Positions 264-7,561 of a stretch of DNA of 64,000 bases are shown in pieces (within the stretch, counting starts at the first letter, position 1; each line of letters begins with the position of its first letter). Made by a program: the position numbers and the translations under genes. Origin of the DNA: Escherichia coli (lineage in GTDB: Bacteria > Pseudomonadota > Gammaproteobacteria > Enterobacterales > Enterobacteriaceae); the NCBI RefSeq assembly GCF_003018235.1, contig NZ_CP027437.1. One strand, given 5' to 3'. The notes beneath the pieces are model-generated. The model saw nothing but the letters and a program-made list of their open reading frames with translations. It was not told the DNA's origin and made no database searches.

Positions 264-3200
264 ATGGCAGTAAAGATTTCAGGTGTACTGAAAGACGGCA
301 CAGGAAAACCGGTACAGAACTGCACAATCCAGCTGAAAGCAAAACGTAACAGCACCACGGTGGTGGTGAACACGCTGGCCTCAGAAAATCCGGATGAAGC
401 CGGGCGTTACAGTATGGACGTTGAGTATGGTCAGTACAGCGTTATTCTGTTGGTGGAGGGATTCCCGCCGTCACATGCCGGGACTATCACCGTGTATGAA
501 GATTCTCAACCCGGTACGCTGAATGATTTTCTCGGTGCCATGACGGAGGATGATGCCCGTCCGGAGGCACTGCGCCGTTTTGAAGTGATGGTGGAAGAGG
601 TGGCGCGTAACGCGTCCGCAGTGGCACAGAACACGGCAGCCGCGAAGAAGTCAGCCGGCGATGCCAGCACATCAGCCCGTGAGGCGGCAACCCATGCGAC
701 TGATGCTGCAGACTCAGCACGCGCAGCCAGCACGTCAGCCGGACAGGCCGTGTCGTCGGCTCAGTCAGCGTCTTCCAGCGCAGGAACTGCATCAGCAAAG
801 GCCACTGAAGCATCAAAAAGTGCTGCCGCTGCAGAGTCCTCAAAAAGCGCGGCGGCCACCAGTGCCGGTGCGGCAAAAACGTCAGAAACGAATGCTTCAG
901 CGTCACAACAATCAGCAGCCACTTCTGCATCCACCGCGACCACGAAAGCGTCAGAAGCTGCCACCTCAGCCCGGGATGCGGCGGCCTCAAAAGAGGCAGC
1001 GAAATCATCAGAAACGAACGCATCCTCGAGCGCCAGTAGTTCCGCTTCCTCGGCAACGGCGGCAGGAAATTCCGCGAAGGCGGCAAAAACGTCCGAGACG
1101 AACGCCAGGTCTTCTGAGACGGCAGCGGGACAGAGCGCCTCAGCTGCGGCAGGCTCAAAAACAGCGGCTGCATCATCTGCCAGTGCCGCGTCAACAAGTG
1201 CCGGGCAGGCCTCAGCCAGTGCCACTGCCGCCGGAAAATTGGCAGAAAGCGCTGCATTGTCCGCTTCAACAGCCACAACGAAGGCTGGCGAAGCCGCTGA
1301 ACAGGCCAGCGCAGCAGCGAGGTCTGCATCCGCAGCGAAGACATCCGAAACGAACGCGAAAGCGTCGGAAACCAGTGCAGAATCCTCAAAAACGGCAGCT
1401 GCATCGTCCGCCAGTTCGGCGGCGTCATCGGCATCATCTGCGTCTGCTTCAAAAGATGAGGCGACCAGACAGGCATCAGCAGCGAAAGGCAGCGCCACGA
1501 CGGCATCCACGAAGGCGACAGAGGCTGCTGGCAGTGCGACGGCGGCAGCACAGAGCAAGAATACGGCAGAATCCGCAGCAACGCGCGCCGAGACAGCAGC
1601 TAAACGGGCAGAGGATATTGCATCCGCCGTGGCGCTTGAGGATGCAAGTACGACGAAAAAGGGGATAGTACAGCTCAGCAGTGCGACCAACAGTTCGTCT
1701 GAAACGCTGGCGGCAACGCCAAAGGCAGTAAAATCAGCCTATGACAATGCAGAGAAACGTCTGCAGAAAGACCAGAACGGCGCTGATATACCCGATAAGG
1801 GACGCTTCCTGAACAACATTAACGCGGTCAGTAAAACAGACTTTGCTGATAAGCGTGGTATGCGTTATGTGCGGGTTAACGCTCCTGCAGGTGCAATATC
1901 TGGAAAATATTACCCTGTTGTTGTTATGCGTTCTGCTGGCTCAGTAAGCGAACTGGCATCAAGGGTCATTATCACCACGGCAACGCGAACCGCAGGCGAT
2001 CCGATGAATAACTGCGAGTTTAACGGATTTGTTATGCCTGGTGGCTGGACTGACAGGGGGCGTTATGCTTATGGAATGTTCTGGCAATATCAAAACAATG
2101 AACGAGCCATCCACTCAATAATGATGAGTAATAAGGGCGATGATTTGCGCTCTGTGTTCTATGTTGATGGCGCTGCTTTCCCTGTTTTTGCGTTTATCGA
2201 AGATGGCCTGTCAATATCCGCACCTGGTGCTGATCTCGTTGTTAATGATACGACCTATAAGTTTGGGGCAACAAATCCGGCGACTGAATGTATCGCGGCG
2301 GACGTTATCCTTGATTTTAAGAGTGGGCGTGGTTTTTATGAGTCTCATTCGTTAATTGTTAACGATAACTTGTCGTGCAAAAAACTTTTTGCCACAGACG
2401 AAATTGTAGCGCGTGGTGGTAATCAGATTCGAATGATAGGTGGGGAGTATGGTGCATTATGGCGTAATGATGGCGCTAAAACTTACCTGCTGCTTACCAA
2501 TCGAGGTGATGTTTATGGTGGCTGGAATACATTAAGACCGTTTGCTATTGATAACGCAACCGGCGAACTGGTTATTGGAACCAAACTGTCCGCAAGTCTG
2601 AACGGTAATGCATTAACAGCAACAAAGCTGCAAACGCCAAGACTGGTTTCTGGTGTTGAGTTTGATGGTTCCAAAGATATTACTTTAACCGCCGCGCATG
2701 TGGCTGCTTTTGCCAGAAGGGCAACGGATACATATGCCGATGCGGATGGTGGCGTTCCCTGGAATGCCGAATCAGGCGCTTACAATGTCACCCGCTCTGG
2801 CGACAGCTATATTCTGGTTAACTTCTATACCGGAGTCGGAAGTTGCCGGACCCTGCAGATGAAGGCGCATTACAGAAATGGTGGTCTGTTCTACCGTTCT
2901 TCAAGAGATGGCTATGGTTTTGAGGAAGACTGGGCAGAAGTTTATACCTCGAAAAATCTTCCACCAGAAAGCTACCCAGTCGGCGCACCAATCCCGTGGC
3001 CATCAGATACCGTTCCGTCTGGTTATGCCCTGATGCAGGGGCAGACTTTTGACAAATCTGCCTACCCGAAACTTGCAGCCGCTTATCCGTCAGGCGTGAT
3101 CCCTGATATGCGTGGCTGGACGATTAAGGGCAAGCCCGCCAGTGGTCGTGCCGTATTGTCTCAGGAACAGGATGGCATTAAATCGCATACCCACAGCGCC

Positions 3201-3677
3201 AGCGCATCCAGTACGGATTTGGGGACGAAAACCACATCGTCGTTTGATTACGGCACTAAATCCACGAATAACACCGGGGCGCATACGCACAGTCTGAGTG
3301 GCTCTACGGGGTCTGCCGGTGCTCATACTCATGGTAATGGTATTCGTTGGCCAGGAGGCGGCGGTTCTGCGTTAGCATTTTATGATGGCGGTGGGTTCAC
3401 TTATGTCCAGGATTCACAGTATCAAGTAAGCCCGGGGACTTCTTCCAGTAGATCGTATTATCAACGTATTCAGACACAGTCAGCAGGTGCTCATACCCAC
3501 TCGCTGTCTGGTACTGCAGCAAATGCTGGCGCACATGCACATACTGTAGGTATTGGTGCGCATACGCACTCGGTTGCGATTGGGTCACATGGACACACCA
3601 TCACCGTTAACGCTGCTGGTAACGCGGAAAACACCGTCAAAAACATCGCATTTAACTATATTGTGAGGCTCGCATAA
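264..3677 (+). CDS. stf: Side tail fibre protein, lambda Stf-like mosaic (about 1137 aa from the ATG at 264)
   Basis: N-terminus [26 protein letters not shown]... and C-terminus ...[31 protein letters not shown] match my recollection of lambda Stf; a long Ala/Ser/Thr-rich low-complexity segment and a central block resembling Rac StfR. The ORF track starts at GTG 258; ATG 264 is preferred. Confidence 0.9.
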
Positions 3678-4252
3678 TGGCATTCAGAATGAGTGAACAA
3701 GCACGGACCATAAAAATTTATAACCTGCTGGCCGGAACTAATGAATTTATTGGTGAAGGTGACGCATATATTCCTCCTCATACAGGTCTGCCTGCAAACA
3801 GTACCGATATTGCACCGCCAGATATTCCGGCTGGCTTTGTGGCTGTTTTCAACAGTGATGAGGCATCGTGGCATCTCGTTGAAGACCATCGGGGAAAAAC
3901 GGTCTATGACGTGGCTTCCGGCGACGCGTTATTTATTTCTGAACTCGGCTCATTACCGGAAAATGTCACCTGGTTATCCCCGGAAGGGGAGTTTCAGAAG
4001 TGGAACGGTACAGCCTGGGTGAAGGATACGGAAGCAGAAAAACTGTTCCGGATCCGGGAGGCGGAAGAAACAAAAAACAGCCTGATGCAGGTAGCCAGTG
4101 AGCATATAGCGCCGCTTCAGGATGCTGTGGATCTGGAGATCGCAACGGAGGAAGAAACCTTGTTGCTGGAAGCCTGGAAAAAGTATCGGGTGTTGCTGAA
4201 CCGTGTTGATACATCAACTGCACCGGATATTGAATGGCCAGCCCTACCGTAG
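3677..4252 (+). CDS. tfa: Tail fibre assembly protein Tfa
   Basis: 191 aa, [24 protein letters not shown]..., lambda Tfa-like; the start overlaps the stf stop (TAATG). Confidence 0.9.
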
Positions 4253-4349
4253 GGTAAGATATATAAATTCTATAATTAGAAGTATCTTTCCATTTAAGGC
4301 TAGGAAGGGGGGCTTGGAAAACGTAAGGAATCTCACACCGAGATTATTT

Positions 4350-4940
4350 TTATATATCAGGTGTCTGATTTTTTGCTTTAGCTCTTAAAATGGTTTGCCG
4401 CGAGGTTTTGAATTCTTGGGCAATGTCACTTATATTTATACCTGACTTAATTTGCTCTAGTACCCTCTGTATTTGTTCATCATTTAACACAGGTGGGCGA
4501 CCAAATCGCTTTCCTGCGCCCCGTGCTCTTAATATCCCTGAATGAGTACGCTCAAGTAAAAGGTCTCGCTCAAATTCAGCGACTGCTGAAATTACTTGCA
4601 TCATCATTTTTCCAGGTGGACTGGTCAGGTCAACGCCCCCCAATGCTAAGCAATGCACTTTGATACCTGCTTTGGTCAGTTGTTCCACCGTTTTACTGAT
4701 ATCCATTGGATTACAACCGAGGCGATCCAGTTTTGTGACAATCAATGCATCACCTCTTTTCAGTCGATCAAGCAACTGGTTAAAACCAGGACGCTCACTG
4801 GTTGCTGCTGAGCCGCTAATTTGTTCTTCAATTATTTGCTGAGATTTGATGTTAAAACCTGCACTTTCGATTTCCCGACGTTGATTTTTGGTTGTCTGTT
4901 CCAGAGTTGATACCCGACAGTAAGCATAAATTCGAGACAT
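4350..4940 (-). CDS. pin: Serine recombinase, Pin-type DNA invertase
   Basis: 196 aa, [15 protein letters not shown]... with a resolvase/invertase N-terminal catalytic domain and C-terminal HTH; same size and context as K-12 pinQ/pinR. Confidence 0.9.
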
Positions 4941-5258
4941 AGTGAGATCTTCTATACGAAATTGGTGTACATATCATAATGCATCTCAGAAAATAATTTT
5001 GATTATTTTTGTACATATTTGTATGTACACGTTCGAAAATAAACGAATGCGTATGCAACCCCGTAATTTTGGTGAGACCCAAAATCGATTTTGTGAAAAA
5101 TGGCCTTAACTCGGTTTGTTTTTCGAGTTCCGGGGGGACTCAAGGAAGAAGAATAGTGTTGCGTGTTATTTTAACCAGATTTCAAGTTGTTTGGTCGTGA
5201 AAAAGTGGAGCAAAATGTTGTTAAAGTGGAAAAATGATAAAAAAGTAAGTTTATTATA

Positions 5259-5492
5259 TTACATTTTACCATTTAAATTTTTGTTGTCTTTAAGAACTGA
5301 TATCGCTGTTTGTAATAATTCTTTGTTATCCAGCCATGACTTTTTCTTTATGTTTCCTTCAATGTAATCAAGCAATGTTCTGGTATTGATAGGTCTTCCC
5401 TGTTTTGCTACTTCCACTACAGCATCCCCTAGGATAATTCTTACTTCAGGAAGCTGCGCAGGGAACCACTTTAGGGTGTCTTTTGATTTCAT
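5259..5492 (-). CDS. ydfK: Small prophage protein YdfK/YnaE family (cold-shock-induced in K-12)
   Basis: 77-aa product MKSKDTLKWFPAQLPEVRIILGD... from the internal ATG, which has an AAGGA RBS 9 nt upstream; the 88-aa ORF from 5525 is the less likely start. Confidence 0.8.
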   Translation of the reverse strand: MKSKDTLKWFPAQLPEVRIILGDAVVEVAKQGRPINTRTLLDYIEGNIKKKSWLDNKELLQTAISVLKDNKNLNGKM

Positions 5493-6277
5493 GAAGATAT
5501 TCCTTAAAATATTATTGATTTTCATTGCGATATTGTATGTCTGATTCAGGATATGTTGACTTATACATCGGTTTTGTCTGGGTTATTGGATATGCCAATC
5601 CCTAATTTTATTAGAGCATGACTAAAAATGCTGAATATGATAAGGAGCGAAGTGATTATCAGTATGCTGTTCATATAGCCTCGAATTAGTAATGTGTTAT
5701 ATATGATATAGTTGACAATTTTTATCCTGGGTGTTCTTAAAGTTCGTAGATAAACATTGTCGTTTCAGGTATACAGGAATGCTAACAGGTGGCGGCAAAA
5801 ATCAGGCGGTTTATGGCGCAAGCTGAAGTGGCAACTGCAAACTATCTTATGCAGAGACTCTACACGGATTGGGTTTAAAAGTATACATAGATAACAGTTT
5901 TTATCTGAAGAAGAAAAATATCAAGGTGATATAGCCTATATGCCTTTGATGCGGAGGAATGAATGTGATGGGAGTGATGTATCTGAATAGTTGAAAAACC
6001 GCAGACACGCCTTATGCAAGAACGTGCTGCGGTTGGCTGGTAAATTTTTCGATAGTGCGAGTATTGAATGATTTCCAGCCGTTATTGATTTTACGCGTAA
6101 ATCCATGAAAAAACTACTTATCTGTTGGGGAGTTTTTTTGGGGCATATATGGGACAGAAATAGGCCCCAGATAGACACTGAGATCGAACTTAGGATGCTT
6201 TTTAAAAAATGCAACTATCTGAAAAAACCTAGAAAACGCCAAGGAAACCACAGGATGGGAAAAAACACCTGTGAATT

Positions 6278-7561
6278 ATGGATTTCCAGTTATATTCGCT
6301 CGGCGCAGCGTTAGTGTTTCATGAAATATTTTTTCCTGAATCATCAACGGCAATGGCGTTAATTCTGGCAATGGGAACCTACAGTGCAGGTTATGTGGCG
6401 CGTATTGTCGGAGCATTTATTTTCGGCAAAATGGGCGACAGAATCGGGCGTAAAAAAGTGCTCTTTATTACCATCACTATGATGGGGATCTGTACCACCT
6501 TAATTGGTGTGCTGCCGACCTATGCACAAATTGGTGTGTTTGCGCCAATTTTGCTGGTGACGCTGCGTATTATTCAGGGGCTGGGGGCAGGCGCGGAAAT
6601 TTCCGGTGCCGGCACGATGCTGGCGGAATATGCACCAAAAGGTAAGCGCGGAATTATCTCCTCATTTGTGGCTATGGGAACTAACTGCGGAACCTTGAGC
6701 GCAACGGCAATCTGGGCCTTTATGTTCTTCATTCTCAGTAAAGAGGAACTGCTGGCGTGGGGATGGCGTATACCGTTCCTGGCGAGCGTTGTCGTGATGG
6801 TCTTTGCTATCTGGTTGCGTATGAATCTGAAAGAAAGCCCGGTCTTTGAGAAGGTTAACGACAGCAACCAACCGACAGCAAAACCTGCACCTGCTGGTAG
6901 CATGTTCCAGAGCAAATCCTTCTGGCTGGCAACAGGGCTGCGTTTTGGTCAGGCTGGTAACTCCGGTTTAATTCAGACTTTCCTTGCAGGCTATTTAGTA
7001 CAGACGTTATTGTTTAACAAAGCAATTCCAACAGATGCATTGATGATCAGTTCGATTCTCGGCTTTATGACCATTCCGTTCCTTGGTTGGTTATCCGATA
7101 AAATTGGTCGCCGGATCCCGTATATTATTATGAATACCTCCGCGATTGTGCTGGCATGGCCAATGCTTTCTATCATCGTAGATAAAAGCTATGCCCCGAG
7201 CACCATTATGGTGGCACTGATTGTGATTCATAACTGTGCGGTGCTGGGATTATTTGCTCTGGAAAACATTACCATGGCAGAAATGTTCGGCTGTAAAAAC
7301 CGCTTTACCCGGATGGCCATTTCTAAAGAAATTGGTGGTCTTATCGCTTCCGGTTTTGGTCCTATCCTGGCGGGTATTTTCTGCACCATGACGGAGTCCT
7401 GGTATCCGATCGCCATTATGATCATGGCATATTCAGTGATTGGTTTAATCTCTGCGCTGAAAATGCCAGAAGTGAAAGACCGTGATTTAAGTGCGCTGGA
7501 AGACGCTGCGGAAGATCAACCGCGTGTTGTCAGAGCTGCGCAACCTTCCAGAAGTCTTTAA
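6278..7561 (+). pseudogene. ydfJ: MFS metabolite:H+ symporter YdfJ, 5'-truncated at the prophage junction (may still be expressed from the internal ATG)
   Basis: 427-aa ORF beginning MDFQLYSLGAALVFHEIFFP..., which by comparison with KgtP/ProP-type transporters is missing roughly 25-30 N-terminal residues; an in-frame stop lies at 6272-6274. Confidence 0.75.

Follow-up and report, generated by a model that had tools for sequence, protein, structure and literature searches.

The pin gene that follows the tail-fibre assembly gene tfaQ in a 64,000-nucleotide stretch of Escherichia coli DNA (contig NZ_CP027437.1, assembly GCF_003018235.1; the whole stretch is named here the window) encodes a recombinase of the PinQ type. 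We find that positions 4307-5055 of the window are probably a fossil of the right arm of a Tn3-family transposon, composed of a terminal inverted repeat (IR), a tnpR-type resolvase gene and a res site with three subsites, in which PinQ would be autoregulatory and would not carry out inversion in cis. The pin module is an ordinary res-tnpR-IR fragment of the Tn3 family whose location is unexpected and whose name misleads, and it never was a tail-fibre switch. A preliminary description of this region had interpreted the gene as such a switch reduced to an orphan invertase, and had proposed three upstream copies of the motif TGTACATA as a candidate operator or recombination-related site.

The pin gene (4350-4940, minus strand) codes for a small serine recombinase of 196 amino acids (Pfam Resolvase 1e-37, HTH_7 1.8e-11) whose catalytic serine is residue 11. 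The protein is 85% identical to PinQ and PinR of strain K-12. Its identity to the invertases of tail-fibre switches is 37% for PinE, 35.0% for Cin of P1 and 32.5% for Gin of D108, whereas it reaches 73-80% with the TnpR proteins of intact Tn3-family transposons from Shewanella, Vibrio, E. albertii and enterobacterial plasmids (76% for the Shewanella transposon and ~80% for TnpR on Escherichia plasmids). Matches to solved structures are about equal for the two types of enzyme (E=1.8e-27 for Gin, the best PDB sequence match, and E=5e-23 for gamma-delta resolvase). A large protein database holds thousands of closer relatives at 72-85% identity, many of them plasmid-borne and some named resolvase, and 1894 records of the plasmid collection carry a homologue. 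The PinQ clade is a clade of Tn3-family TnpR resolvases, an assignment made because its close relatives sit in Tn3-family elements. Close homologues adjoin a Tn3-type transposase of 994 amino acids (DUF4158 and DDE_Tnp_Tn3 domains) in Shewanella, Vibrio and E. albertii; the Vibrio and the Klebsiella/Yersinia plasmid homologues adjoin Tn3-type tnpA genes or fragments, and the amino-terminus of the plasmid tnpA product matches DUF4158 at 1.8e-44. No paper linking pinR to Tn3 resolvases was found in the literature.

The closest actual relatives of the pin module are minimal 3.8-kb elements of Shewanella baltica and Escherichia. In S. baltica the gene of the 76%-identical TnpR is 160 bp from a divergent gene coding for the 994-residue TnpA, and three identical copies are present in one genome. 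Their comparison delimited a 3.8-kb element with 38-bp inverted repeats, GGGGTCCGCTTGGAAAACGGAAAATATCCCACGCTAAG. One copy (L010) clearly shows a 5-bp duplication of its target, TTTAA, while the flanks of the other two are not cleanly resolved. Elements of the Shewanella type with the same IR are found in the E. albertii chromosome, in a plasmid of that species and in an E. coli plasmid, where tnpA has a single stop codon; in the Vibrio version tnpA and tnpR have the same direction. The identity of the S. baltica copies (CP002811/CP002813) at three sites suggests recent transposition of an element reduced to tnpA, res, tnpR and the 38-bp IRs. The S. baltica and Escherichia elements are possibly ISSba14-like; ISSba14 and ISSod9 are names found in the literature.

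A relic of the right terminal inverted repeat of such an element is found downstream from pin, inside the 97-bp interval that separates the gene from tfaQ. It occupies 4307-4342 (minus strand), with the outer GGGG at 4307-4312 and its inner end 7 nucleotides after the pin stop codon. The window sequence CTCGGTGTGAGATTCCTTACGTTTTCCAAGCCCCCC aligns with the 38-bp right IR that the Shewanella and Escherichia elements carry, CTTAGCGTGGGATATTTTCCGTTTTCCAAGCGGACCCC, and keeps ~27 of the 38 positions, including the identical 12-mer GCTTGGAAAACG, which is unique in the window. Position and orientation are those found in these elements, and only the right end is represented. A 38-bp GGGG...TAAG terminal repeat lying just past the gene is likewise the arrangement of Tn3-family elements. 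A search for a tnpA remnant with the amino-terminal 400 residues of TnpA (tblastn, first 12 kb) yielded nothing below E=0.6. An ILTR match noticed by eye past subsite I was considered as a possible remnant and rejected, because the best tblastn hit (E=0.62) is elsewhere in the sequence. The module is a fragment of a transposon and not a transposon, its transposase side and left end being gone. Taken together, the IR relic, the gene and the res site described next therefore define the transposon-derived block as extending from 4307 to ~5055.

The 200 bp upstream of pin were aligned with the corresponding segments of phage HannyBb, three plasmids, an Erwinia phage and Sinorhizobium, and the upstream regions of nine independent homologues were scanned for the 9-bp half-site TGT[C/A]CGAAA. 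Half-sites are present at most of the family offsets in eight of the nine regions; the S. meliloti homologue fits loosely. Relative to the start codon, subsite I has half-sites at about -115 (rightward) and -98 (leftward) that form a 9+8+9 = 26 bp dyad, subsite II has half-sites at -75 (rightward) and -52 (leftward) in a 9+14+9 = 32 bp dyad of conserved geometry, and subsite III is a pair of leftward half-sites at -34 and -21, spaced by 13 bp. As in the modules of Tn3 and gamma-delta, a serine resolvase with a carboxy-terminal helix-turn-helix is preceded directly by res, subsite III is nearest the gene, a promoter would be embedded in the site, and the half-sites begin with TGT. The Tn3/gamma-delta half-site consensus is TGTCYNNTA. 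The pin module differs from Tn3 in the length of its dyads (26 and 32 bp versus 28 and 34 bp) and in the same-direction organization of subsite III, as well as in its missing transposase and left end, its eroded half-sites, a Cys in the place of Arg71 (see below) and its location in a phage late region.

In the window all half-sites are on the minus strand. Starting from the gene, the proximal half-site of subsite III (4953-4961, -21 to -13) reads TTTCGTATA and matches the family sequence at 8 of 9 positions; its offset is common to all nine homologues. The distal half-site (4966-4974, -34 to -26; 6/9) reads ATATGTACA, recurs unchanged at this offset in the transposon of the E. coli plasmid and is aligned with ATTCGGACA and ATTAGTACA in other relatives; it overlaps the predicted transcription start. 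The right half-site of subsite II (4984-4992, -52 to -44) is TTTCTGAGA (7/9; aligned with TTTCGGATA and TTTCGTACA) and the left one, II-L (5007-5015, -75 to -67), is TGTACAAAA (8/9; aligned with TGTCCGAAA and TGTACGAAA). The right half-site of subsite I (5030-5038, -98 to -90) is TTTCGAACG (7/9; aligned with TTTCGGACA and TTTCGTACG). The left half-site, I-L (5047-5055), reads CATACGCAT and is badly eroded (5/9), in the right register for a 9+8+9 dyad. In the allele of strain O55:H7 the same position carries CATCCGAAT (6/9). A break of homology at the crossover point of subsite I had been considered and was discarded, because the O55:H7 half-site is in register and the whole of subsite I is homologous. 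No gap is needed to align the window with the E. coli transposon over -82 to -1, or with the Klebsiella copy from -98. A -10 hexamer of the pin promoter, TATGAT (4973-4978, minus strand, -38 to -33), is predicted by conservation only: the homologues of E. coli, Klebsiella, Yersinia, Shewanella and Vibrio carry TATAAT at just this offset, and a promoter consensus scan passed over the window's box because its -35 is weak. The homologue of the Erwinia phage has six clean TGTACTAAA half-sites at the family offsets in place of TGT[C/A]CGAAA. On the strength of these alignments the region upstream from pin is read as a degenerate three-subsite res with subsite III proximal and a putative promoter inside. 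It is the single res-like cluster of the window, where no second one was found.

A palindrome, ATTTTGG-tgagac-CCAAAAT, is located at 5066-5085, just past I-L and near the end of the transposon homology. The O55:H7 allele has a hairpin with another loop, TTTTGGT-tac-ACCAAAA, at the matching place.

There are exactly three copies of the motif TGTACATA in the window, at 4966-4973 (plus strand), 5010-5017 (plus) and 5022-5029 (minus), and the last two copies form a perfect palindrome, TGTACATA-tttg-TATGTACA, at 5010-5029, as the preliminary description had reported. Whether they exceed chance depends on the segment considered. In the whole window the three copies do not differ significantly from the 1.62 expected (22 of 100 shuffles give at least as many). 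In the AT-rich intergenic region (318 bp), 3000 dinucleotide shuffles never gave three copies of this motif, a result softened by the post-hoc choice of the motif, as some 8-mer is present three times or more in 13% of these shuffles. A perfect 8-N(0-6)-8 palindrome is found in 6% of them. Since the counts are weak, the case that the motifs matter rests on their homology to the res site. The first copy belongs to the degenerate distal half-site of subsite III, and the second overlaps II-L, also degenerate, representing the left half of subsite II. The third copy is lineage-specific and lies next to subsite I, in the spacer between subsites I and II, whose sequence at this place differs in every relative (TTGTTAAAC, CCTCGCAAAC, CCTTCTAAT and others); the O55:H7 allele reads TATACATA. 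The exact triple is specific to the allele of the window, which has GTAC at all three positions, unlike K-12 pinQ and pinR, which as HannyBb keep one exact copy and have TGCACA or TGAACA at the other two. By this comparison the palindrome is not a conserved unit and would not be a purpose-built operator, and the third copy appears to be drifted spacer. The earlier suggestion of an operator or recombination-related site is half right: the upstream motifs resemble operators and are related to recombination, and of the two arms of the palindrome one is the left half of subsite II and the other is spacer.

The components of an invertase switch were searched for without success. The 26-bp gix/cix/pix/hix crossover consensus has two matches at three mismatches in the 64-kb window, where 2.82 are expected, each at a distance of over 40 kb, and the pix arm has one match (0.56 expected), at 48.6 kb; a pix site was not found in the window. 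No fragment of stf or tfa was detected in 4253-6277 by tblastn with Stf and Tfa (nothing below E=0.4), and in the 64 kb tblastn gave no more than one tfa and one pin. The facts of the preliminary description are borne out here: only one tfa is present, 97 bp separate it from pin (tfa ends at 4252), no invertible segment is recognisable by a second tfa or a pair of crossover sites, and the searches it had called for, for gix/hix-like sites and for degraded stf/tfa fragments, gave nothing above chance and nothing in the interval, respectively. Two inverted repeats were inspected. The pair 3263-3289 / 5048-5074 (74%) was rejected as crossover sites or as an inverted stf' fragment (tblastn E=0.8); it arises because the GAHTHS codon repeat GCGCATACGCA meets the eroded I-L. 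The pair 4830-4845 / 4983-4998 (15/16), which relates pin codons 32-37 to the region of the right half-site of subsite II, is weaker in K-12, absent from the transposon relatives and probably due to chance.

The Gin, Cin, Pin and Hin switches (Mu G, P1 C, e14 P and Salmonella H) share with pin a small serine recombinase of the same overall fold encoded next to tail-fibre genes. The pin locus is distinguished from them by the 33-37% identity of its protein, the lack of inverted 26-bp sites and of alternative Sv/tfa segments, a different recognition helix and the transposon relics.

Codon 76 of pin (TGT, Cys; 4713-4715, minus strand) stands opposite the catalytic Arg71 of Tn3/gamma-delta resolvase. 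HMMER alignments to the Gin (4m6f) and gamma-delta (2gm4) structures set kldrlgC against kldrlgR. The catalytic set of Tn3 resolvase (Y6, R8, S10, D36, R68, R71) is consequently incomplete: Y7, R9, S11 and R73 are present, R71 is replaced by Cys76, and the position of D36 is Glu in the whole PinQ clade. DRLGR is found in 113 of the 120 closest homologues. The four that have DRLGC are E. coli prophage clusters with ~3600 member sequences together. Cys is shared by K-12 PinQ and PinR, HannyBb and the O55:H7 allele, and Arg by the homologues from Shewanella, Vibrio, the Erwinia phage and Sinorhizobium. The R71A and R71K mutants of Tn3 resolvase, which lose the arginine at the same position, do not recombine and cleave ~1000-fold less while binding to site I is kept (Olorunniji and Stark 2009, PMC2794168). 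These are laboratory mutants, whereas Cys76 is natural and fixed in a clade of thousands of genomes, and its catalytic effect is a prediction. The ratio dN/dS is 0.34-0.38 between two Cys lineages and 0.15-0.19 against transposon tnpR, with small counts, which fits a relaxed but continuing constraint on pin.

A mosaic chromosomal allele at the prfC prophage of another E. coli (L021; CAJVAH010000001.1, 603025-609615; 2940-3560 of this locus) carries Arg and matches the tnpR of the Escherichia transposon at 100% identity between about -60 and codon 185; its flanks, last codons and relic IR are of prophage type. Its composition indicates gene conversion between a transposon and the prophage relic, and it shows that transposon tnpR and prophage pin are homologous enough to recombine. 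An Arg-bearing pin with a near-perfect res (I-L TGTCCGAAA) was seen beside a tfa fragment and without a tnpA start upstream, in ~1-kb Logan contigs only; a full-length combination of Arg-bearing pin and intact res was not found in 5426 complete E. coli genomes, so that these contigs represent a rare allele or else a chimera of assembly.

Binding to res, autorepression and reduced catalysis are what we infer from these features. In Tn3-type systems res has three subsites, of which III is nearest tnpR and I is the place of crossover, and the promoters embedded in res are repressed by TnpR (PMC7157771). PinQ dimers would bind subsites II and III via the carboxy-terminal helix-turn-helix. These subsites straddle the predicted -10 box (4973-4978) and the predicted transcription start, and their occupancy may repress pin transcription; autorepression is proposed because TnpR represses its own res promoter in Tn3. 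Recombination in cis would be weak or absent. Inversion is not expected because such enzymes resolve directly repeated res sites, because the window holds one worn res whose I-L is nearly lost, and because Cys76 replaces the catalytic arginine. The substitution should cut cleavage by orders of magnitude and spare DNA binding.

Several observations weigh against this reading. Homology leaves the third TGTACATA copy and the perfect palindrome unexplained. Among the five prophage alleles compared, the half-sites vary about as much as the spacers, and only the -10 box and the proximal half-site of subsite III are invariant; such variation argues against strong selection for binding at every subsite. 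The open reading frame (ORF) is intact in thousands of genomes and in the viable phage HannyBb, which probably reflects a useful role beyond those identified here. Finally, as reported by Kirigo et al. (NAR 2025, PMC12529663), overproduction of K-12 PinQ, which also has Cys, raises inversion of the e14 P segment from ~30% to ~88%. If this effect is direct, it contradicts the predicted catalytic loss.

The last result is one argument for the proposal that PinQ is an active invertase in trans. According to Kirigo et al., K-12 PinQ acts in trans to invert the P segment, and T2 adsorption is thereby blocked. Having no substrate in Qin, PinQ would invert the 1.8-kb P segment of e14 at pix, leading to StfE2 and to the block of T2 adsorption. 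In the same account, deletion of pinQ lowers both inversion and T2 survival, the effect requires stfP and stfE, that is, the pix sites, and a BLAST survey found inversions in e14 only and none in Qin or Rac, with which the lack of a local substrate in the window agrees. The proposal concerns the activity of the protein and is compatible with a transposon origin of its gene. It has to face the Cys at the R71 position of K-12 PinQ itself, at which Tn3 mutants do not recombine (PMC2794168), a recognition helix unlike that of PinE (VGVSTLYK), and a family half-site, TGTCCGAAA, unlike pix (TTCTCCCAAACC), a site that is missing from the window. Moreover, PMC12529663 states that in a pinE mutant a single orientation is locked in, even with pinQ and pinR intact, and its main text describes neither a mutant of the catalytic serine nor an assay with purified protein. 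We consider direct inversion by PinQ possible and, on this balance, doubtful. The fossil right arm reading can be extended, tentatively, to these data: PinQ and PinR might be crippled Tn3-type resolvases kept after their capture by lambdoid phages as DNA-binding autorepressors or modulators, and the stimulation of e14 P inversion would be indirect, for example via PinE or selection.

A still-functional resolvase, which would resolve dimers of the replicating phage or recombine the pin-res sites of different prophages at subsite I, is suggested by the right geometry of the three subsites, by an intact pin that is under purifying selection and found in a viable phage, and by the Erwinia phage homologue with its six pristine half-sites and Arg. 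It is unlikely in view of the Cys at the R71 position, of an I-L matching at 5 of 9 positions, of the single res cluster in the window and of the published BLAST survey, which reports no Qin-Rac rearrangements (PMC12529663). The Erwinia homologue is carried by phage LS-2018a (CP013974.1; 60% identity, two matches in the record). At 5880-6000 of its locus it directly follows a gene that by eye resembles terminase, and it could be a working phage-plasmid dimer-resolution system.

The palindrome at 5010-5029 might also be a new operator for another dimeric regulator, of phage or host, laid atop the old res. The 8+4+8 dyad is perfect and precedes the start codon by ~70-90 bp, one of its arms comes from lineage-specific spacer changes, and there is a weak sigma-70-like match that has the TGTACA of the dyad as -35. 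This appears quite improbable: the dyad is broken in K-12 pinQ and pinR (TGCACA), in HannyBb (CATGCACA) and in O55:H7 (TATACATA), the shuffles produce a palindrome of this size in 6% of cases, and no candidate regulator was identified. That pin is instead the invertase kept by a decayed Gin/Cin/Pin tail-fibre switch after loss of the invertible segment, as its position by stf and tfa (recalling Mu, P1 and e14) and its being a small serine recombinase had led to propose, is highly improbable in the face of the higher identity of its protein with transposon TnpR (73-80%) than with Gin, Cin and PinE (33-37%), the IR and res relics that bracket the gene, the missing crossover sites and stf'/tfa' debris, and a compact arrangement that is also that of a viable phage.

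The context of the module is that of a prophage end. E. coli STEC2018-607 (NZ_CP075697.1) matches positions 3000-6300 at 100% identity and is annotated across this segment as lom, prophage side tail fibre, tfaQ, "recombinase family protein", ydfK, ynfT and a truncated ydfJ. On account of this match and its annotation, the prophage is identified as a lambdoid one of Qin type, with ydfJ as its insertion site and the pin locus at its right end, and the gene is pinQ. The stf gene of the window is full length (1139 amino acids), a difference from K-12. The tail-fibre assembly gene tfaQ (3677-4252, plus strand; Pfam Caudo_TAP 1.6e-44, also named tfaQ in NZ_CP075697.1) is outside the module. Between its stop codon and the outer end of the IR relic is a prophage spacer (4253-4306) that is conserved with K-12, O55 and HannyBb and unrelated to the transposon flanks. 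K-12 holds the layout twice, as stfQ-tfaQ-pinQ-ydfK in Qin and stfR-tfaR-pinR-ynaE in Rac, with a gap of 97 bp between tfa and pin, the same Cys and the res and IR relics in each. The transposon-derived block is thus found between tfa and ydfK in Qin/Rac-type lambdoid prophages, and HannyBb has the same compact tfa-pin arrangement. With the aim of defining the insertion boundaries, at least 5000 records of E. coli were searched for an empty site, with tfa joined to ydfK without pin, and it was not found.

Scans of 3600-6400 with Rfam and for tRNAs revealed nothing relevant to pin. Rfam IS009 (RF02111) has a strong match at 4020-4218 (plus strand; 221.7 bits versus a gathering score of 117), wholly within the 3' coding end of tfaQ, and a sub-threshold match to the Shigella small RNA CssrB is seen at 5894-6031 (28.7 bits versus a gathering score of 76). 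No confident gene was recognised in 5526-6277, from ydfK/ynfT to ydfJ. The ydfJ gene at 6278-7561 lacks its amino-terminus, which marks the junction between prophage and chromosome. Long antisense or out-of-frame ORFs (309-364 amino acids) at 487-1690, over the Ala/Ser-rich repeats of stf, are almost certainly artefacts of repetitive GC-rich codons.

The pinQ and pinR genes are present in most E. coli genomes and have long been labelled "DNA invertase". Their origin in a transposon explains why an invertible segment was never found beside them, and it gives the upstream motifs a concrete role that can be tested, autoregulation. PMC12529663 presents pinQ/pinR as the first recombinase-activated anti-phage system. 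The origin of these genes as resolvase relics and the clade-wide loss of the arginine change the experiments that are needed to support this model, and the natural active-site substitution Cys76 is worth a test at the bench. For genome annotation, an invertase gene found next to tail-fibre genes is not to be equated with a host-range switch unless its clade and its flanking sites have been checked.

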